Part shown: positions 6,230 to 64,000 of the stretch, in pieces | Position numbering within the stretch: position 1 is the stretch's first letter | Layout of the letters: the number at the start of each line of letters is the position of its first letter | NCBI GenBank assembly: GCA_024403275.1 | Contig: JAKSSD010000006.1 | Coordinates: forward strand, 821 to 64,820 | From: Lachnospiraceae bacterium | Lineage (GTDB): Bacteria; Bacillota; Clostridia; Lachnospirales; Lachnospiraceae | Length of the DNA stretch: 64,000 nucleotides | Direction of reading: 5' to 3' | Notes under the pieces: model-generated | The model's input: the letters and a program-made list of their open reading frames with translations, nothing else | Told to the model about the DNA's origin: nothing | Databases searched by the model: none | Made by a program: the position numbers and the translations under genes

Positions 6230-7444
6230 GTGAAAAGCATTTATTCCGTATATCAGTTAAATACATATATTCATAATATGTTTGGAGAAGATATTTTGTT
6301 ATCTGATGTTTCTGTATCAGGAGAGATTAGTAATTTAAAGTATCATTCCTCCGGACATATTTATTTTACCCTAAAAGACTCTCAGTCTGCTGTTTCTTGC
6401 GCCATTTTCCGTTCGTCCGCCAGCAAACTGAGTAAACCATTAAAGGATGGTGATAAGATTATCGCCACCGGATCTGTTAACAATTATATTCCCAATGGAT
6501 CAATTACATTTAATGTTACGTCAGTTAAAGCTCAAGGAGTTGGTGAACTTACAGTTAAATTTGAGGAACTGAAAAATAAACTTAAGGAACAGGGACTTTT
6601 TGACCAGGAATTTAAACAACCTATTCCTAAATTCCCTAAGACTGTAGGAATTGTAACAGCACCTACTGGAGCAGCTATTAGAGATATTATTTCTGTTTCA
6701 AAGAGACGTAATCCATATATATCGCTGGTTCTTTATCCTGCAATAGTTCAGGGGGCTGATGCGGTACCTTCAATTGTTGCTGGCATTAATGCCTTAGAGG
6801 CATATGGTGTAGATGTTATTATTGTGGGCCGAGGCGGTGGAAGTATTGAGGATTTATGGGCATTTAATGAAGAAGAAGTTGCTTATGCAATTTTCCAATC
6901 CACAATACCAATAATTTCTGCTGTAGGACATGAAATTGATTTTACAATTGCGGATTTTGTTGCAGATATGAGAGCGGCTACGCCATCAGCAGCTGCAGAG
7001 CTTGCAGTTCCAGATATAGTTTCTGTTATAAATGACATAGATAAGCTTGATAAAAGATTAAATCAGGCCATTCTTAATAAACTTGATTTAAATAAGAGTA
7101 AGGTAAAGGTCTTAGAGGCTAAGCTTGATAAAGTATCGCCTGAAAATTCTCTTAAGAATAAAAAACTTCTTATTGAGAATTATGAGAAGAGACTTGATTA
7201 TCTTATGAAAAATTCTATAGCGAATCAAAGACATAGGCTTGATAAGCTTAGTGAGAGATTAAAGGGTGTATCGCCTCTTGAGAGATTATCACAGGGTATG
7301 GCATATGTGACAGATATAAATGGTTTACGAATTTCAGGAGTGGCAAATCTTAATGCTAATGATGAATTAAAAGTCATTATGAAGGATGGTATTGCTACAG
7401 TTTCAGTTAAGAGTGTTCAGAAGGAGACTTATGATGGACAGTAA
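6230..7444 (+). CDS. xseA: exodeoxyribonuclease VII large subunit
   Basis: N-terminal OB fold (VSGEISNLKYHSSGHIYFTLKD) and catalytic core (VGIVTAPTGAAIRD, IIVGRGGGSIEDLWAFN). GTG start. Confidence 0.9.
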   Translation: MKSIYSVYQLNTYIHNMFGEDILLSDVSVSGEISNLKYHSSGHIYFTLKDSQSAVSCAIFRSSASKLSKPLKDGDKIIATGSVNNYIPNGSITFNVTSVKAQGVGELTVKFEELKNKLKEQGLFDQEFKQPIPKFPKTVGIVTAPTGAAIRDIISVSKRRNPYISLVLYPAIVQGADAVPSIVAGINALEAYGVDVIIVGRGGGSIEDLWAFNEEEVAYAIFQSTIPIISAVGHEIDFTIADFVADMRAATPSAAAELAVPDIVSVINDIDKLDKRLNQAILNKLDLNKSKVKVLEAKLDKVSPENSLKNKKLLIENYEKRLDYLMKNSIANQRHRLDKLSERLKGVSPLERLSQGMAYVTDINGLRISGVANLNANDELKVIMKDGIATVSVKSVQKETYDGQ

Positions 7445-12174: not shown

Positions 12175-13857
12175 ATGCTACTTAATTTACATGTTAAAAA
12201 TTTTGCGCTAATAGATGAAGCGGATGTTGATTTTGATAAAGGATTAAACATTCTGACTGGTGAAACTGGAGCTGGTAAATCAATTATTCTTGGCTCTATG
12301 AATTTGGCTCTTGGTGCAAAAGCAGATAAAGATTCAATTAGAAATGGTGCAGAGTTCGCACTTGTTGAAATGACATTTTCGATAGAGAATGATATTCAAA
12401 AAGAAATTCTAAATTCCATGGATATTTATCCTGAAGATGGAATTCTTGTCATTCAAAGGAAGATTCTTCCAACAAGAAGCGTATTTAAAGTTAATGGTGA
12501 GACCGTAAATGCTTCTTTGGTTAAGGATATTGCAAATATTCTTATTGATGTTTATGGTCAGCATGATTATCAGTATCTTTTGAAGCCTCAAAAACATATA
12601 GAAATACTTGATTCTTATGCAGATGATTCCTTTACAAAATTACTTAAAGACTACAGGGATTTATACAAGGAATATCTGTCAGTTAAGGAAGAATTAAATG
12701 CTCCTGAGATTGATGAAGTAAAAAGAGAAAGAGAAGTGTCTCTTTTGAAATATCAGATTAATGAAATAGAATCTGCCTCGCTTAAGGAAGGAGAGGAAGA
12801 AGAGATTCAGGATAGATTAAAGGTTTTGGAAAATTCAGCAAAGATTCAAAGCACTTTAGGGAATATTAAGGAACTGCTATTTGAAATGAATTCATCTGCT
12901 TCAGAAAATGTCGATATGGCATTGAGAGAAAGTCTTCAGATTTCGAATGTAGATGATAGATTAGCAGGTCTTTCTGAAGAGATTGGAGATATATCCAATT
13001 CTCTGTCCGAGATTTCAAGAGAAATCAATGATTGCCTTGACGATTATACTCTTGATGAGGAAAGTCTTGATATTATGAGAGAAAGATATGAACTCATAAA
13101 TGATTTAGAGAGAAAATATGGTAAGACAATAAAGGATATTAACATATATTATGAAGAAAAGGTTGCAGAACTTGAAGTGCTTCAGAATATGGATGAAAAG
13201 AAAGCCAGATTGACTAAAGAATTTGAAAGATTAGAAAAGCTTCTTAAAGATAAGGCTTCGAATATTACAAAAGCCAGAAATAAGAATGCGAAAGAGTTCG
13301 AGAAATCAATTATTAAGAGTCTTGCGGATTTGAATTTTAATCAGGCGGATTTCAAGGTTGAAATAAAAGAACTTCCTGAATTTGGAATTAATGGACTTGA
13401 TAAAGTTGGCTTTACGATTTCAACTAATCCAGGTGAAACAAGAAAGCCACTTGAAAATGTAGCAAGTGGTGGTGAATTATCCAGAATTATGCTTGCTATT
13501 AAGGCTGTGGCTGCTAATAGTGAGCAGAAGGCCACACTTATATTTGATGAAATCGATGCAGGTATCTCGGGTGTAACTGCATGGAAGGTAGCTGAAAAAT
13601 TGGCAAGCTTATCCTTTAATCATCAGGTTGTTTGTATTACTCACTTACAACAAATTGCTGCTATGGCTGACAGACATTTTGAGATTAAAAAATCAGTGTC
13701 TAATCAAAGAACTGAAACTTCAATATCAGTACTTGATGAGGAAGGTCAGATTAAAGAGATTATAAGAATGTTAGGAGATGAAACTTCTTCTGAAACATTT
13801 AGGGAAAATGCTCTTGAATTAAAGAAAAGAGCAAGTAATTACAAATTGCAAAAATAA
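12175..13857 (+). CDS. recN: DNA repair protein RecN
   Basis: MLLNLHVKNFALID..LTGETGAGKSI Walker A, coiled-coil middle region, C-terminal ASGGELSRIMLA signature and LIFDEIDAGISG Walker B. GAGGAGG Shine-Dalgarno. Confidence 0.93.
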   Translation: MLLNLHVKNFALIDEADVDFDKGLNILTGETGAGKSIILGSMNLALGAKADKDSIRNGAEFALVEMTFSIENDIQKEILNSMDIYPEDGILVIQRKILPTRSVFKVNGETVNASLVKDIANILIDVYGQHDYQYLLKPQKHIEILDSYADDSFTKLLKDYRDLYKEYLSVKEELNAPEIDEVKREREVSLLKYQINEIESASLKEGEEEEIQDRLKVLENSAKIQSTLGNIKELLFEMNSSASENVDMALRESLQISNVDDRLAGLSEEIGDISNSLSEISREINDCLDDYTLDEESLDIMRERYELINDLERKYGKTIKDINIYYEEKVAELEVLQNMDEKKARLTKEFERLEKLLKDKASNITKARNKNAKEFEKSIIKSLADLNFNQADFKVEIKELPEFGINGLDKVGFTISTNPGETRKPLENVASGGELSRIMLAIKAVAANSEQKATLIFDEIDAGISGVTAWKVAEKLASLSFNHQVVCITHLQQIAAMADRHFEIKKSVSNQRTETSISVLDEEGQIKEIIRMLGDETSSETFRENALELKKRASNYKLQK

Positions 13858-13905
13858 GCAAAAATGTCTATAATATTCATATATTGACAATTGGAGGGTA
13901 ATACA

Positions 13906-15351
13906 ATGAAAAATATACTTTTTGTAGCTTCTGAAGGTGTTCCATTTATTAAAACAGGAGGTCTCGCCGATGTTGTTGGATCACTTCCTAAATGCATTGA
14001 CAAGAGATATTTTGATGTCAGAGTAATGATTCCTAAATACACATGTATTAAGCAGGAATTAAAAGATAAAATGGTTTATAAAACCAGCTTCTATATGGAT
14101 TTCCATTGGGGAAATGAGTACGTAGGAATTCTTGAAGCAGAAGTAGATGGTGTTAAGTATTATTTCATTGATAATGAATCAAAATTTGGTGGAGATCATC
14201 CATATAGTTCTAATGTATATGATGATATCGAGAGATTTGCTTTCTTCTCAAAGGCTGCCTTATCAGCCATGCCACTTCTTGATTTCAGACCTGATGTAAT
14301 TCATTGCCATGACTGGCAGACAGGACTTATTCCTGTATATCTTAAAGAGCGTTTCCAGGGTAATGATTTCTTCCATGGAATCAAATCAGTTATGACTATT
14401 CATAACCTTAAGTTCCAGGGTAAATGGGATGTTCCTGCAGTACAGGATATTACAGGCCTTCCAGATTATTTCTTTACACCTGACAAGCTTGAGTCATATA
14501 AGAATGCTAACCTTTTAAAGGGTGGTCTTGTATACGCAGATGCTATTACAACTGTATCTGATACATATGCTAAGGAGATTATGACTGAATTCTATGGCGA
14601 GAGTCTTGATGGACTTATGCGTGCCAGAGAGAATGATTTAAGAGGTATTGTAAATGGTATCGACTATACTGATTACAATCCTACTACAGATAAGTATATT
14701 GATTATCCTTATACAGCTGCTAATTACAGAAAAGAAAAGATTAAAAATAAGAGAAAACTTCAGCAGGAACTTGGTCTTGAAGAGAACGATAAGATTATGA
14801 TGATTGGTATTGTTTCAAGACTTACAGATCAGAAGGGATTTGATCTTATTGCATATATTATGGATGAACTTTGCCAGGATGCGGTACAGATTGTTGTGCT
14901 TGGTACTGGTGAAGAGAGATATGAAAATATGTTTAGACATTTTGACTGGAAATATAACAACAAAGTGTCAGCAAATATTTATTATTCAGAGGGATTGAGC
15001 CATAAGATTTATGCAGCATGTGATGCATTCCTTATGCCATCATTATTTGAGCCTTGCGGACTTAGTCAGCTTATGGCTTTAAGATATGGTACTATTCCAA
15101 TTGTTCGTGAAACAGGTGGACTTAAGGATACAGTTGAACCATATAATGAATATGAATCAACAGGTACCGGTTTCAGCTTCACTAATTACAATGCTCATGA
15201 AATGCTTGCTACAATCCGTTATGCTGAGAAGATTTATTACGACAAGAAACGTGAATGGAACAAGATGATTGACAGAAGTATGGCTGTTGACTTCTCATGG
15301 GAAGTATCTGCTAATAAATACCAGGAAATGTATGACTGGTTGATTGGTTAA
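13906..15351 (+). CDS. glgA: glycogen synthase (ADP-glucose type)
   Basis: MKNILFVASEGVPFIKTGGLADVVGSLP N-terminus and the C-terminal EPCGLSQLMALRYGTIPIVRETGGLKDTV motif. GGAGGG lies upstream of ATG 13906. Confidence 0.92.
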   Translation: MKNILFVASEGVPFIKTGGLADVVGSLPKCIDKRYFDVRVMIPKYTCIKQELKDKMVYKTSFYMDFHWGNEYVGILEAEVDGVKYYFIDNESKFGGDHPYSSNVYDDIERFAFFSKAALSAMPLLDFRPDVIHCHDWQTGLIPVYLKERFQGNDFFHGIKSVMTIHNLKFQGKWDVPAVQDITGLPDYFFTPDKLESYKNANLLKGGLVYADAITTVSDTYAKEIMTEFYGESLDGLMRARENDLRGIVNGIDYTDYNPTTDKYIDYPYTAANYRKEKIKNKRKLQQELGLEENDKIMMIGIVSRLTDQKGFDLIAYIMDELCQDAVQIVVLGTGEERYENMFRHFDWKYNNKVSANIYYSEGLSHKIYAACDAFLMPSLFEPCGLSQLMALRYGTIPIVRETGGLKDTVEPYNEYESTGTGFSFTNYNAHEMLATIRYAEKIYYDKKREWNKMIDRSMAVDFSWEVSANKYQEMYDWLIG

Positions 15352-24474: not shown

Positions 24475-25092
24475 ATGAAGGGTAAAGAAAAGTGTAAAGC
24501 ATTAAAGGAAATCAGAAAAAAGATTGCAGACGAAAATGATATTCCATACGTGGTAGAAGAGTGTTCGCATAAAGGAGAATGCAAGGGTACTTGTCCAAAA
24601 TGCGAAGCTGAGCTTAGATACCTTGAAAGAGAACTTGAAAGAAAAGAAAAAATAGGCAAAAAACTTGCTGTTGTGGGTGTTTCTATGGGTATTGCAGCTT
24701 CTTTTGCGGGCTGTGATTTCGATGATGCAATGGAAGTTATTACATATCCAGGAGTTGTTGCTATTGAAACAGTTGAGAATATATTTGGCTTGAATCAACC
24801 AACATTAGAAGGAGATGTTCAGTATGTTGATGGTGATATGGGTTATATAGATGTTCCTGAACTTGAAGGAGAGCCAACATATCCAGATTATGAAATTGGT
24901 GGAGATGTTGATTATATAGATGTTCCTGAACTTGAAGGAGAGCCAACAATACCAGATTATGAAATTGATGGAGATGTTGATTATATAGATGATGGTACAG
25001 ATGGTTGTAAAGTTGAAGATGGAGATTTAGAAGAAGACAATACAGGCAATATAGAAGAAGATATAGAAGAAAATATTGATTTGGCTGAATAA
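24475..25092 (+). CDS. Cys-rich (C-x-H-x3-C-x3-C-x2-C) single-pass membrane protein with acidic tandem-repeat ectodomain, function unknown
   Basis: AAGGAGA Shine-Dalgarno. The N-terminus ...EECSHKGECKGTCPKCEAEL is followed by a charged helix, a TM helix (LAVVGVSMGIAASFAG) and an extremely acidic C-terminus carrying 23-aa repeats. Confidence 0.6.
   Translation: MKGKEKCKALKEIRKKIADENDIPYVVEECSHKGECKGTCPKCEAELRYLERELERKEKIGKKLAVVGVSMGIAASFAGCDFDDAMEVITYPGVVAIETVENIFGLNQPTLEGDVQYVDGDMGYIDVPELEGEPTYPDYEIGGDVDYIDVPELEGEPTIPDYEIDGDVDYIDDGTDGCKVEDGDLEEDNTGNIEEDIEENIDLAE
24841..24993 (+). repeat. 69-bp tandem repeat, about 2.2 copies, in-frame
   Basis: Copy 1 is 24841-24909, copy 2 is 24910-24978 (about 5 mismatches in 69 bp), and a partial copy 3 starts at 24979. 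Each copy encodes (G/D)YIDVPELEGEPT(Y/I)PDYEI(G/D)GDV. Confidence 0.9.
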
Positions 25093-57715: not shown

Positions 57716-57744
57716 TTGACTTTTTAATATATGCTTATTAAAAT
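57716..57744 (+). promoter_or_regulatory. leuS promoter, TTGACT-17-TAAAAT
   Basis: TTGACT at 57716-57721, 17-nt spacer, TAAAAT at 57739-57744. The leader to the ATG is only about 30 nt. Confidence 0.65.
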
Positions 57745-57775
57745 TAATGGGTATGATTTTTTATTGGAGGCTAAT

Positions 57776-60196: not shown

Positions 60197-60216
60197 TATA
60201 AGTTATAATTTTTTGA

Positions 60217-60247
60217 AATAGGTCTCAGTAAATGAGGCCTATTTTTT
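60217..60247 (+). terminator. rho-independent terminator after leuS
   Basis: ATAGGTCTCA / TGAGGCCTAT stem (one G-U pair) followed by TTTTTT. Confidence 0.8.
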
Positions 60248-60334
60248 ATGTGAAATTTAGTAAATTATTATCCTAAAATAATAAGATATATTAGTATATT
60301 TTTCTAATTATGAGATGTTTAATATTTAGATTTT

Positions 60335-60343
60335 TGATATAAT
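60335..60343 (+). promoter_or_regulatory. extended -10 promoter element (TGATATAAT) for the TIR gene pair
   Basis: TG at 60335-60336 and TATAAT at 60338-60343, 41 nt upstream of ATG 60384. The -35 is weak. AAGGGAA Shine-Dalgarno at about 60371. Confidence 0.5.
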
Positions 60344-60383
60344 TATTTTGTTCGATAATTTTTAATAGAAAAGGGAATAAATT

Positions 60384-62147
60384 ATGGCGGTATTTAAGTG
60401 TAAAATGTGTGGAGCAAATCTGAATGTTGATTCAGATAAAAAGGTTTGTACTTGCGAATATTGTGGAAGTACACAAACTGTTCCTTCTGTTCATTCAGAC
60501 AGAATTGAAGGAATGTATGAAAGAGCTAATCAGTTCAGAATTAATTATGAATTTGATAAGGCTTTAAGTATTTATGAATTGATACTTGAAGAAGAAAATG
60601 GTGATGCTGATATTTACTGGTCAGTATTCCTTTGCAAATACGGTGTTAATTATGTTGAGGATGCTTTAAGTGGAAAGAGAATTCCTACAATAAATAGATT
60701 CCAGTATGCTTCTGTGTATTCTGATCTTGACTATAAGGCAGCTATTGAGAAGGCTACAGATGAGCAAAGAGCTGTATATGAAGAAGAGGTTAAGAGAATT
60801 GCTGAAATCCAGAAAACATTTATGGAGATTTCAGAGAAGGAAGAACCATTTGATGTATTTATCTGTTACAAGGAAACAGATGATATGGGAAGAAGAGCTG
60901 TAGATAGTGTTCTTGCAAATGAGATTTACCATGCTCTCGATAAAAAAGGTATTAAAACATTTTTCTCTAGAATTACACTTGAAGATAAGCTTGGTGTAGA
61001 TTATGAACCATATATATTTGCTGCTTTGAATTCTGCTAAGATTATGATTGTTCTTGGCACAAAACCTGAATTTTTCCAGGCAGTTTGGGTTAAGAATGAA
61101 TGGGCAAGATTTATTTCTCTTATTAAAAATGGTGCAGAAAAGACACTGATTCCTGCTTTTAAAGGAATGGATCCATACAGCCTTCCAGAAGAATTTGCAC
61201 ACCTTCAGGCTCTTGATATGTCAAAGCTTGGCTTTATGCAAGATCTTATTCGTGGTGTAGAGAAGATTTTAGGTAAAGATAAAATAGTTAATGAAGAAGT
61301 TCAACCTGTTCAAAGCCAGTCACCTCAAGGTGTAGAGGCTGTTAATTTGATGGCATACAATTTCCTTGTTTTAGGAACATATGAGAAAGCTAATGAATTG
61401 TACGAACAGATATTAAATTATGATAGTTCAAATTTAGATGCTTATTTAGGCGAAATATATGTTAAGTATCAGGTTAAAAATATGGAAGAGCTTGAACAGA
61501 AGCTAATTAGTACAACTGACAAAATTATTGCCGAAAAAGAAAAGATTCCTACATATGCATGTGATGATAAAAGTTATCAGCTTGCAAATCAGTACTTTGT
61601 TGAAGGGTATTATTCAAAAGAAGATATTGTTAAAACCTTACAGTTCAACAGAGCTTACGAGCAAAAGATCGATGATATTGAATTGTATATTAAAGAACTT
61701 GAGCAGTATGAAAAGACAGTATTTAAATATTATTTAAAGTTTGCTTCAGATGAAAAGAAATCAGAAATTCATGACATGATGGACAGAGTAATTGATGAAG
61801 TTAAAAAGATTTACGATAATCGTGTTGAATATGAGAAAGAACTGATTGAAGGAAGAACTAAAGCTTACAATGTATTTATTGATAATAAGTTTAATGACAT
61901 TGTTAAGAAAAATCAACAAGCTTTAAATACACGTAATGTTGATTATTTAGGTGCTGTTCGTACAATAAAGACATCAATAAGTGTTTATGAATTAAACAGC
62001 GCAGTGAATACTCTTAAAAACATGGGTGATTATGAACAGTCTGGCTTATACATTATAAAGGGTGAAGAGAAGATGAATACTATTGGAAATGTTCAAAGCT
62101 TTGTGGCTGGTGTTTCAGAAGAGTTACTTAAAAGCAATCGTTATTAA
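60384..62147 (+). CDS. zinc-ribbon + TIR-domain protein with helical (TPR-like) C-terminal half; soluble paralog
   Basis: N-terminal CKMCG-x12-CTCEYCG zinc ribbon. TIR-type block at residues about 155-295: PFDVFICYKETDD ... YEPYIFAALNSAKIMIVLGT ... AVWVKNEWARF. Helical C-terminus with no hydrophobic anchor. Confidence 0.8.
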   Translation: MAVFKCKMCGANLNVDSDKKVCTCEYCGSTQTVPSVHSDRIEGMYERANQFRINYEFDKALSIYELILEEENGDADIYWSVFLCKYGVNYVEDALSGKRIPTINRFQYASVYSDLDYKAAIEKATDEQRAVYEEEVKRIAEIQKTFMEISEKEEPFDVFICYKETDDMGRRAVDSVLANEIYHALDKKGIKTFFSRITLEDKLGVDYEPYIFAALNSAKIMIVLGTKPEFFQAVWVKNEWARFISLIKNGAEKTLIPAFKGMDPYSLPEEFAHLQALDMSKLGFMQDLIRGVEKILGKDKIVNEEVQPVQSQSPQGVEAVNLMAYNFLVLGTYEKANELYEQILNYDSSNLDAYLGEIYVKYQVKNMEELEQKLISTTDKIIAEKEKIPTYACDDKSYQLANQYFVEGYYSKEDIVKTLQFNRAYEQKIDDIELYIKELEQYEKTVFKYYLKFASDEKKSEIHDMMDRVIDEVKKIYDNRVEYEKELIEGRTKAYNVFIDNKFNDIVKKNQQALNTRNVDYLGAVRTIKTSISVYELNSAVNTLKNMGDYEQSGLYIIKGEEKMNTIGNVQSFVAGVSEELLKSNRY

Positions 62148-62161
62148 TAAGGGGATTAAAA

Positions 62162-63934
62162 ATGATAAATTATACTTGTAAGATGTGCGCTGGCACACTT
62201 GAAATAGAAGATAATAAAAAAATCTGTACTTGTAAATTCTGTGGTACATCTCAGACAGTTCCTAATCTTTCTAATGAAAAAAGAGCAAGACTTTATGAAA
62301 GAGCTGAACATTTAAGAAAGAATAATGAATATGACAAGGCAATTGCTGTTATTGATGAAATTTTAAATGAGGATATTACTGATTCAGAAGCTTATTGGCT
62401 TAGAACTTTATGTTCTTATGGTATTGAGTATGTTGATGATACTAAGACTACTAAGAAGGTTCCTACAGTAAATAGAACTCAGTATAAATCTATTTTCTCA
62501 AATGAAGATTATAAATCTGCTATTAAGTATGCTGCAACTGAGCAGATTGATATTTACCAGCAGGAAGCAAAGAATATTGATTATATTCAAAAGGGTATTC
62601 TTAGAATAGCAGAGAAGGAAAAGCCTTTTGATGTATTTATCAGTTATAAGAGTAGTGATGAAAATGGTAACAGAACAAATGATAGTGTTCTTGCTAATGA
62701 TCTTTATCATCAGTTAGTTCAGGAAGGCTTTAATGTATTCTTTTCTGAAATTACTCTTGAAAACAAATTAGGTAAGGATTATGAACCATATATTTTTGCT
62801 GCATTAAATAGTGCTAAGGTAATGATCGTTCTTGGTACTAAGATTGAGTATTTTAACGCTGTATGGGTTAAGAATGAATGGAGCAGATTCATTAATATTA
62901 TGGCTGAAAAAGGTGACAGACTTCTTATTCCTTGTTATAAGAATGTTGATCCTATTAATCTTCCTGATGAATTTGCTCATCTTCAATTACAGGATATGAA
63001 TAAGCTTGGTTTTGTTACAGATCTTATTAGAGGTATTAAAAAGATTGTTAATAAACCAAAGGCTATTGACGCTGTTAATCCTGCTATGCTTGCTCAAATG
63101 CAGACAGTATATCTTTCTCCTAAGTATGAAGAAGTATTTAAAAGAGGTTTACTTGCTCTTGAATTCGAAGAGTATAATAAGGCCTGTGAGTTCTTTAGAT
63201 TTGCACAGAATATTGATTCTAAGGAGATTAATCCGCATGTTTACGAAGTAATGGCCAATATGCAGTATAAAAATATAGATCAATATGAGGAGTATTATAA
63301 AAGACTTATAGATAAAGAAAATAAGACTCCTGATAATAGTATAATGAATATTACAAAGTATTTTAATGAGCTTCGTACACAATATGAATCAGATAATTAC
63401 TTTAATATAAATGCTTTGAGTGAGGAATTTATAGATACAATTCATCTTTGGCTGTTAAAACCTTATAAGGAGAAAGTTTTAAAAGAATTACAATCTCAAA
63501 AATGGGTTAAGTTAATTGAGGGATATCCTGAAAAGGAACCAGAATTGACTGAATTTTATAATAGATTAAAAGATTATTGTAATGATAAGATTGCCGAAGC
63601 TGAAATAGAAGATAAAAATGCCCTTGAGGCCTACAATAAAGCTTATGAAAAGAAAGTAGAGATTCTTAAGGAAAAAATTAAAGAAATGCAGGCAGAAGCA
63701 GACGAAAGAAAAGAGAAGGATTATATTGCTGCCAAGAATAAACTTAAATCCTTATGGGTTAGAAAGGTATCTGAATCAAAAGGCAATTTTAAATTTATCG
63801 GTGAATACAAAGATGCACCAAAGCTTTATTATAAAGCTCAGTTTAAAGAGAGACTATTGTATGCCATTACAATTGCGGTACCTATATTGATTGCAATTGC
63901 TGCGATTATTACAATTATAATTGTTTGGGGTTAA
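62162..63934 (+). CDS. zinc-ribbon + TIR-domain protein with helical C-terminal half and a C-terminal transmembrane anchor; paralog of the preceding gene
   Basis: CKMCA-x12-CTCKFCG zinc ribbon. PFDVFISYKSSDE ... YEPYIFAALNSAKVMIVLGT ... AVWVKNEWSRF. The last 26 aa (LLYAITIAVPILIAIAAIITIIIVWG) are hydrophobic. GGGGA Shine-Dalgarno. 14-nt gap from the upstream gene. Confidence 0.8.
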   Translation: MINYTCKMCAGTLEIEDNKKICTCKFCGTSQTVPNLSNEKRARLYERAEHLRKNNEYDKAIAVIDEILNEDITDSEAYWLRTLCSYGIEYVDDTKTTKKVPTVNRTQYKSIFSNEDYKSAIKYAATEQIDIYQQEAKNIDYIQKGILRIAEKEKPFDVFISYKSSDENGNRTNDSVLANDLYHQLVQEGFNVFFSEITLENKLGKDYEPYIFAALNSAKVMIVLGTKIEYFNAVWVKNEWSRFINIMAEKGDRLLIPCYKNVDPINLPDEFAHLQLQDMNKLGFVTDLIRGIKKIVNKPKAIDAVNPAMLAQMQTVYLSPKYEEVFKRGLLALEFEEYNKACEFFRFAQNIDSKEINPHVYEVMANMQYKNIDQYEEYYKRLIDKENKTPDNSIMNITKYFNELRTQYESDNYFNINALSEEFIDTIHLWLLKPYKEKVLKELQSQKWVKLIEGYPEKEPELTEFYNRLKDYCNDKIAEAEIEDKNALEAYNKAYEKKVEILKEKIKEMQAEADERKEKDYIAAKNKLKSLWVRKVSESKGNFKFIGEYKDAPKLYYKAQFKERLLYAITIAVPILIAIAAIITIIIVWG

Positions 63935-63940
63935 TTATTT

Positions 63941-63975
63941 AAATCCATGTATTAGAAATTAATACATGGATTTTT
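63941..63975 (+). terminator. rho-independent terminator closing the TIR gene pair
   Basis: Perfect 14-bp arms AAATCCATGTATTA / TAATACATGGATTT, GAAAT loop, T-tract. Confidence 0.85.
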
Positions 63976-64000
63976 CTTTTGTAAATTTACTGAATATTGA

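Follow-up and report, generated by a model that had tools for sequence, protein, structure and literature searches.

Immunity in animals, plants and bacteria has an enzymatic core in common, the TIR (Toll/interleukin-1 receptor) domain, and the known bacterial TIR systems considered here for comparison (Thoeris, CBASS effectors, SPARTA and the TIR-NLRs) are built on cytoplasmic partner modules. In Bacillus cereus, the BcTir/BcTpr operon has been reported to deplete NAD+ and to restrict phage (preprint 10.1101/2023.05.26.542521), and putative antigen sensors diversified by diversity-generating retroelements (DGRs) and carrying TIR or peptidase effectors have been described in multicellular bacteria (Dore et al., PNAS 2024, PMC10907252). 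Here we analyse two adjacent genes, A and B, located near the end of a 64,000-nucleotide stretch of DNA from a metagenome-assembled genome of a rumen or gut Lachnospiraceae bacterium (NCBI proteins MCQ2543177-80; assembly GCA_024403275.1, contig JAKSSD010000006.1, positions 821 to 64,820; hereafter the window), where they follow leuS and have none of those partner modules beside them. The first-pass annotation of this DNA had proposed them as a candidate NAD-targeting defence module. As judged from its sequence, the pair is a divergent, lineage-specific, ectodomain-less offshoot of a huge uncharacterised family of Clostridial TIR receptors, and it most likely belongs to an NAD+-cleaving conflict or defence system.

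A and B are genuine TIR proteins with a glutamate at the catalytic position. The Pfam model TIR_2 (PF13676) scored 41 bits with A and 45.6 bits with B, against a gathering cut-off of 28, and an AlphaFold2 model of B built from an 86-sequence alignment (mean pLDDT 86.8) matched the TIR domains of L7 (flax), SNC1, RPS4, AbTir, SARM1 and SPARTA in a Foldseek search of the PDB with a probability of 1.0. Target-normalised TM-scores of this model to L7, SNC1, RPS4, AbTir and others ranged from 0.57 to 0.72. When the proteins were compared with solved TIR domains by phmmer, Glu239, within the motif AVWVKNEW, was paired with the glutamate of L6 SKWCLMEL, a column that we take to be the catalytic glutamate position of plant TIR NADases, and also with that of 7ylf_A, a TIR chain of the TLR type (deposition name Toll-like receptor 15 / Toll-like receptor 2). 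With gene A, the same column aligned with the glutamine of the non-catalytic adaptor TIRAP. Glu239 is part of a WxxxE motif, presumably at the position shared with the WxxxE motif of AbTir. The TIR domains, the codons assigned to Glu239 and its correspondence with the catalytic glutamate, all put forward in the first-pass annotation, were therefore borne out, and from them we infer that A and B may act as NADases.

The TIR domain of A is preceded by a zinc ribbon (C6, C9, C24 and C27) and a TPR-like N-domain with a beta-hairpin (aa ~35-152), and is followed by a TPR/helical C-terminal half. B shows the same layout, with the addition of a long helix that forms a coiled coil (aa 460-528) and, ~3 residues short of the C-terminus, of a tail-anchor helix; its model consists of TPR and coiled coil downstream of the TIR domain. 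A has no transmembrane (TM) helix, ending ~34 residues after a conserved G(D/E)Y(K/E) motif, and is therefore predicted to be soluble, while B is predicted to be tethered by its tail anchor at the inner face of the membrane. The N-terminal 155 aa modelled alone were predicted with a pLDDT of 89 and a pTM of 0.84, and Foldseek gave for them only a weak TPR-like resemblance (best E = 0.16) and no enzymatic fold. A profile search of the PDB with the alignment of the whole family was dominated by TPR repeats and did not inform the TIR domain. As for the zinc ribbon, its presence was correctly noted in the earlier reading, which gave the motif as CxxC-x12-CxCxxC. In 86 family sequences C9, C24 and C27 were invariant and C6 was found in at least 90%, while the extra Cys22 of A and B was not conserved across the family. 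Given that only these four cysteines are conserved, the motif is CxxC-x14-CxxC.

The family to which the pair belongs is very large. A word-indexed protein search with A gave at least 8,000 matches, and an exhaustive search with the N-terminal 155 aa of B gave 2,016 clusters (50% identity) at E <= 1e-30 and 3,370 at E <= 1e-10, the match starting within the first nine residues in 148 of the best 150 clusters listed. Scanning one genome per species yielded at least 597 confirmed loci. The hosts are Oscillospiraceae, Lachnospiraceae, Acutalibacteraceae, Anaerovoracaceae and other Clostridia, mostly metagenome-assembled genomes from gut and rumen. A typical member has 750-1,000 aa and comprises the zinc ribbon, the TPR-like N-domain, the TIR domain, TPR, one TM helix and a variable ectodomain; the family is represented, for example, in Ruminococcaceae bacterium YRB3002 (locus L007). 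Class-wide identity is ~55-60% over the first ~300 residues (CxxC...CxxC ribbon, a hairpin domain with YW..C.YG, and TIR), in which dozens of positions are invariant, and WV[KR]NEW was present in 101/101 family members recovered from genomes. Exactly one TM helix, at about residue 480-650, was predicted in 104 of the best 120 matches. The variable C-terminal domain (200-400 aa) is of the DUF6273, RCC1_2, PASTA or LRR type, and the ectodomain exceeds 100 aa in 78 of 101 members. DUF6273 has been described as C-type-lectin-like and, in phage receptor-binding proteins, as a target of DGRs (PMC10743442). The topology of the family, with an outer binding domain, one membrane helix and an inner TIR domain, is that of an animal Toll-like receptor. 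No description of a zinc-ribbon/TIR/TPR/TM family was found in the literature, of which our coverage was incomplete, so that an earlier description is possible.

A and B scored 541 and 524 bits, respectively, with the family profile. Their N-terminal 300 aa are homologous to those of the family from end to end, and the TPR/helical region aligns up to the start of the TM helix; the difference lies beyond this point, since both proteins terminate where other members cross the membrane and lack the ectodomain, A having no TM helix and B being tail anchored. In a neighbour-joining tree of the N-terminal 300 residues, the pair and its orthologs in a second species (locus L004) formed a long-branch clade of their own, in which the split between A and B is older than that between the two species. 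The L004 ortholog of gene A, 65% identical, also lacks a TM helix, and that of gene B keeps the anchor. The claim that the pair is a stand-alone, undescribed architecture has accordingly to be withdrawn: it is a truncated branch of a very large family, and PGAP already names both window proteins 'toll/interleukin-1 receptor domain-containing protein' (family members appear as 'TIR domain-containing protein').

The absence of an ectodomain from both proteins, the absence even of a TM helix from A and the long branches of the two in the family tree would fit decaying remnants, that is, functionless truncated relics of full-length receptors. We consider this extremely improbable. Both reading frames are intact, and A and B keep every family-invariant residue in the alignment, including the zinc-ribbon cysteines and the WxxxE glutamate. 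The combination of a soluble and a tail-anchored protein is preserved in L004, and synonymous differences exceeded non-synonymous ones within the species (8:6 in A and 20:9 in B, compared with 14:3 in leuS). The predominance of synonymous differences indicates that A and B are maintained, under a constraint looser than that on leuS. Furthermore, tail-anchored short forms recur in other lineages, one of them (L090) standing alone and two adjoining genes for SPFH and four-TM (4-TM) proteins (see below). One such form lies in L091 (398-12852), where the gene order is PLDc_2, resolvase, Band_7_1, 4-TM, DUF4917, tail-anchored TIR, a 127-aa DUF6273 open reading frame (ORF), SIR2_2 and an 808-aa TIR gene; the TIR gene beside SIR2 is reminiscent of Thoeris.

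All ORFs in 79 family genome loci were clustered, and two partners of the TIR gene stood out. The first, of 380-480 aa, combines an SPFH Band_7_1 domain (1.9e-36) with double zinc ribbons at its C-terminus; the second is a protein of ~233 aa with four TM helices and no Pfam match. Their genes lie on the same strand as the TIR gene, usually just upstream, and both were present in 22 of the 32 loci having at least 4 kb on each side (~70%), with a median gap of 9 nt between the two. A tyrosine recombinase gene was found ahead of them in 10 loci. No SPFH or 4-TM gene was detected in the window by tblastn of all such sequences. The pair had been described as self-contained and without a partner, which is true of the window, but most of its relatives sit with the SPFH and 4-TM genes. 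This operon may parallel the YdjGHI membrane-stress complex of Bacillus subtilis.

In B. subtilis, PspA is brought to the membrane by YdjI, an SPFH protein that depends for this on the membrane proteins YdjG/H (PMC8581546). By analogy, the family might be the Clostridial counterpart of YdjI/YdjGH and serve in envelope or membrane-stress signalling rather than immunity, with the TIR domain as an oligomerisation or second-messenger module and the pair as a reduced version. This would be in agreement with the operonic association with Band_7_1 SPFH and 4-TM proteins, with the very wide distribution of the family in Clostridial genomes and not on mobile elements, and with the mostly non-defence nature of the genes flanking the modules. 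The pair, however, lacks the SPFH and 4-TM genes and is dispensable in close relatives, and the DGR hypermutation and defence-type cargo found in the family (see below) fit conflict better than homeostasis. A role of this kind is, in our opinion, unlikely.

In 19 loci, unrelated small genes were inserted between the 4-TM and the TIR gene. The cargo of this slot included DUF4365 restriction endonuclease-like proteins, DUF2971 proteins (PADLOC PDC-S31, down to 6e-27), stand-alone ThsB-like TIR proteins (PDC-S66, 8e-40) and HEPN proteins (pEK499_p136). In at least five loci (L005, L015, L018, L021 and L034), a diverged copy of the final ~125 nt of the TIR gene was present ~0.6 kb downstream, and 81%-95% of the mismatches fell at adenines of the downstream copy, the template. 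In L005 the next gene encodes a reverse transcriptase, and in L021 one template matches the 3' ends of both tandem paralogues. Adenine-biased repeats together with a reverse transcriptase are the signature of a DGR, which would act here on the ectodomain. No DGR repeats were found in the 64-kb window.

Tandem arrays of two or three paralogues were present in 17 of the 79 loci, outside the lineage of the pair itself. A divergent 'type-2' clade, scoring ~390-500 bits with the family profile versus ~600 bits for canonical members, occurred only in tandem with a canonical copy (11 loci), which suggests obligate hetero-pairs. Animal Toll-like receptors work with TIR-only adaptors, and the headless A and B could likewise be adaptors or regulators that sense nothing themselves and work with full-length receptors, an SPFH/4-TM module or both, the genes of which would lie in another part of the same genome. 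They would then amplify or dampen TIR signalling. The frequency of non-identical tandem paralogues, with 'type-2' copies always beside a canonical one, would agree with this, as would the finding of tail-anchored homologues next to full-length TIR and SPFH/4-TM genes and the retention in A and B of all the invariant residues that are candidates for an interface. On the other side, no other family member was found in the window nor in the 8 kb downstream of it, and the tail-anchored homologue of L090 has no such company. We thus hold the adaptor role to be fairly unlikely, although deserving of consideration.

A conflict or defence role appears likely for the pair because the family joins an inner TIR domain to an outer, sometimes hypermutated, binding domain. 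The wider family shows several signs of the conflict type, namely variable ectodomains, DGRs, defence-type cargo in the slot and tandem arrays of paralogues, to which the SIR2_2 and DUF4917 genes beside a tail-anchored homologue can be added. There is also a precedent, given that two-gene operons of TIR and TPR proteins can confer phage defence (preprint 10.1101/2023.05.26.542521). For the pair we propose a membrane-tethered A/B TIR hetero-oligomer working as an NAD+-cleaving conflict module, a specific form that we regard as quite possible while falling a little short of probable. On the inner side of the membrane, A and B would form a complex by way of their TPR/coiled-coil and TIR domains, and the TPR-like modules would read a cue such as a phage protein or envelope damage. 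Such a cue would be cytoplasmic or membrane-borne, since there is neither an ectodomain nor a local SPFH partner. It would drive TIR-TIR packing and so complete an NAD+ site around Glu239, and the TIR domains would then hydrolyse NAD+ or make an ADPR-derived signal, with the result that the infected or stressed cell would be arrested, as in abortive infection.

Several observations weigh against a conflict role. The neighbourhood of the pair consists of housekeeping genes (EF-G, leuS) and, beyond position 64000, where the first-pass annotation had advised a check for defence genes, of a sortase/LRR surface-protein operon; there is no defence island at the locus. The SPFH and 4-TM partners that are usual in ~70% of the well-covered family loci are missing, and the pair may therefore be incomplete alone. 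PADLOC matches in the flanks of family modules were sporadic among the 145 nearest genes, a count made without a matched control set. Neither the 50,697 phage records nor the 72,556 plasmid records searched contained a family match, and the 2.9 million viral contigs of IMG/VR yielded only 2 loci. The system models of PADLOC and NCBIfam matched the pair only at the domain level or below threshold, no system fitting it, and a conserved Glu239 is not by itself proof of catalysis. An origin from mobile elements was likewise considered and, in view of these phage, plasmid and IMG/VR counts, was not supported.

On a broader reading, the Clostridia of gut and rumen would widely carry an as yet undescribed class of 'Toll-like' bacterial immune receptors, and the pair would be its most reduced form, confined to the cell interior. 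In this class, single-pass membrane proteins with an outer variable domain, hypermutated by a DGR in some members, would signal across the membrane to a cytoplasmic catalytic TIR domain, within an SPFH-organised complex. This we put forward tentatively, as rather doubtful. If it were true, the pair would imply that no ectodomain is needed to trigger the zinc-ribbon/TPR/TIR core, making it the simplest entry for reconstitution. More generally, if the family is an immune or conflict system, transmembrane and possibly extracellular sensing would be added to bacterial TIR immunity, and there would be a bacterial case of a diversified receptor coupled to TIR signalling. The chief value of the pair is that, in a large and unstudied family of receptor-like TIR proteins, no member is more reduced. 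It is the smallest natural version, with 3.6 kb, no ectodomain and no nearby partner genes, and therefore a convenient construct with which to ask whether the core is an NADase, what switches it on and whether the soluble and tail-anchored proteins hetero-oligomerise.

The coordinates of the pair and of the related loci are collected in Table 1. A and B are paralogues, with 40% identity over 567 aa (BLASTP, E = 4e-130). The two ORFs and their spacing were found to be as first annotated, and the short spacer with its ribosome-binding site implies that the genes are co-transcribed. The unit had been placed between the leuS terminator and a second terminator hairpin, and in both cases the hairpin folded far better than shuffled sequences, with -17 kcal/mol (z = -6.26) after leuS and -15.5 kcal/mol (z = -5.79) after gene B, none of 200 shuffles being as good in either case. 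The extended -10 element TGATATAAT is indeed present, but it is statistically no different from background, as promoter-like matches in this AT-rich stretch numbered 20 against 22.6 expected from shuffles. Its position ahead of the start codon of gene A and downstream of a terminator makes it plausible as the promoter of the pair, and the fact that such matches are no commoner than in shuffled sequence keeps it at that level. The codon usage of A and B had been thought to favour A/T-ending codons more than that of leuS, but it is not distinctive: the GC content at third codon positions (GC3) was 0.23 for A and 0.215 for B, close to 0.249 for leuS and 0.228 for EF-G. The overall GC content of the pair (30-32%, versus 36-37% for leuS and EF-G) lies inside the window's own range. 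Composition therefore gives no evidence of recent transfer.

Table 1. Coordinates of the two-gene unit in the window and of related features in other family loci (L numbers; VR, variable repeat; TR, template repeat; RT, reverse transcriptase)
Feature	Position	Strand	Basis or remarks
Gene A	60384..62147	+	ORF, 587 aa
Gene B	62162..63934	+	ORF, 590 aa
leuS intrinsic terminator (upstream boundary of the unit)	60215..60250	+	13-bp hairpin followed by a U-run
Candidate extended -10 promoter element TGATATAAT	60335..60343	+	Sequence reading; 41 nt before the ATG
A-B spacer with ribosome-binding site AAGGGGA (GGGGA) for gene B	62148..62161	+	Sequence reading; 14 nt
Intrinsic terminator closing the two-gene unit	63941..63973	+	Consensus terminator scan and folding
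TIR domain of gene A	60855..61229	+	Pfam TIR_2, residues 158-282; Glu239 codon 61098-61100
TIR domain of gene B	62633..63001	+	Pfam TIR_2, residues 158-280; Glu239 codon 62876-62878
Predicted transmembrane tail anchor of gene B	63866..63922	+	aa ~569-587; Kyte-Doolittle 19-residue window mean 3.01
SPFH / 4-TM / TIR-receptor operon, typical	L005:7760-12592	One strand always	Also L015, L016, L020, L029, L036, L038 and ~45 other loci
Cargo-slot examples	L016:6206-6715, L033:8418-9086, L066:2063-2488, L034:9408-10001		
DGR, L005	VR 12446-12570 / TR 13178-13302 / RT 13450-14535		
DGR repeats, L015	12424-12550 / 13117-13243		
DGR repeats, L018	6520-6646 / 7213-7339		
DGR repeats, L021	8376-8535 and 12161-12316 / 12853-13012		
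DGR repeats, L034	12422-12543 / 13129-13250		
'Type-2' second copies	L007, L017, L021, L028, L039, L055, L057, L061, L076, L082, L031		

The pair is an accessory element of the leuS locus, absent from close relatives, and does not form part of the surface-protein operon that follows. The isolate Lachnospiraceae bacterium G41 has a leuS gene with 90% identity to the one in the window. In two relatives whose leuS is 90% identical (L087 and L088), leuS is followed straight by the sortase gene after a 140-nt spacer, and in a third (L086) an unrelated gene for a 436-aa protein occupies the slot, the leuS genes of these relatives being 90-91% identical to that of the window. This comparison, which the first-pass annotation had called for, revealed presence and absence of the pair among relatives and not a universal core pair. 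The 436-aa slot protein (L086:12468-13778) has no family match. In isolate G41 (L089:12485-20369), ~8 kb of other genes (acetyltransferases, DUF6348, dCTP deaminase-like and methyltransferase) are found, with no sortase/LRR cluster. The intergenic DNA at the leuS/sortase junction was too different between filled and empty sites to define the boundaries of the insertion.

Beyond the end of the window, a contig of the same species (L001) and L004, the contig of which begins at gene A, contain the genes for a sortase, a 1,429-aa LRR_5/Flg_new protein and a 515-aa LRR_5 protein, and an HMGL-like gene. The cluster formed by the 389-aa sortase and the LRR proteins (L001:13685-20693; L087:12561-19994) has its own conserved promoter and is kept with or without the TIR pair. 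The order TIR-A, TIR-B, sortase, 1429-aa LRR, 515-aa LRR is maintained in L001 and L004, and the LRR_5 repeats resemble the ectodomains of the family members of L010, L050, L059 and L061, so that these giant surface proteins could be thought to provide the pair with extracellular binding in trans. Such a link is highly improbable. The operon is intact without the pair in L086, L087 and L088, gene B exposes only ~3 residues outside the membrane, and a strong terminator and a separate promoter stand between gene B and the sortase gene. The promoter region is conserved in three arrangements and lies, in L001, downstream of the gene B terminator; the pair is therefore an independent 3.7-kb unit in a variable slot.

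Some further features of the window were recorded. An Rfam scan of its whole length (1-64000) gave no family at gathering score, and this holds also upstream of leuS, where a T-box leader might be expected. The leuS start differs between the mechanical ORF (57731, 821 aa) and the deposited protein MCQ2543178.1 (57776, 806 aa), the region in question being 57731-57775, and that of EF-G likewise (mechanical ORF 55394, deposited 55472). A 96-nt direct repeat with a 69-nt offset and 91% identity (24827-24991), inside the ORF 24475..25092, is probably an in-frame tandem repeat in coding sequence.

When A and B were compared with the known TIR systems, the defining tests failed for Thoeris, CBASS, SPARTA and the TIR-NLRs. 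A ThsA-type SIR2/Macro/SLOG effector was found neither in A or B (Pfam) nor among the listed neighbours in L001. The PADLOC ThsB models matched neither protein, and the NCBIfam model 'Thoeris type III ThcB4' gave 14.5 and 30 bits for A and B, far from its cut-off of 220. Neither SAVED, STING nor a CD-NTase/cyclase was detected in A or B by Pfam and PADLOC, or beside the pair; there was no match to APAZ or a short Argonaute partner in A, B or their neighbours, and no P-loop NTPase (NACHT/NB-ARC/STAND) in the Pfam and PADLOC scans of the two proteins, nor an NTPase gene beside them. PDC-S66, a single-gene TIR candidate of PADLOC, matched B partially (3e-8, profile positions 108-244 of 282) and A not at all. 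Hence, the earlier statement that the operon contains none of the usual TIR partners stood, and the statement that it fits no described TIR system held for the systems compared.

With Thoeris, the pair shares a TIR domain with a glutamate at the catalytic position and its organisation as an accessory gene unit, but it has no ThsA-like gene, and the zinc ribbon, TPR and tail anchor are not part of ThsB. The PDC-S66 match of B is confined to the TIR domain, the true PDC-S66-like proteins being the small stand-alone TIR proteins in the slot of other family loci (8e-40). SPARTA is resembled in the TIR fold only. The self-activating TIR NADases AbTir, SARM1 TIR, L6/L7, RPS4 and SNC1 include the best structural matches to the model of B, but their identity to the pair is only 14-18% and their flanking domains and regulation differ. 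For their part, the DGR-diversified sensors of Proteobacteria and Cyanobacteria (PMC10907252) resemble the family of the pair in coupling a C-type-lectin-like, DGR-mutated variable domain to TIR; they carry STAND NTPase or MoxR/vWA modules, whereas the family has no NTPase, a single-pass membrane topology and an SPFH partner, and the pair itself has neither the lectin domain nor the DGR. The BcTir/BcTpr operon is similar to the pair in being a two-gene Firmicute operon that joins TIR and TPR modules. There, however, one protein has the TIR and the other the TPR module, and NADase activity belongs to a glycosidase domain at the N-terminus of the TPR protein, whereas each protein of the pair holds a TIR domain, TPR and a zinc ribbon.

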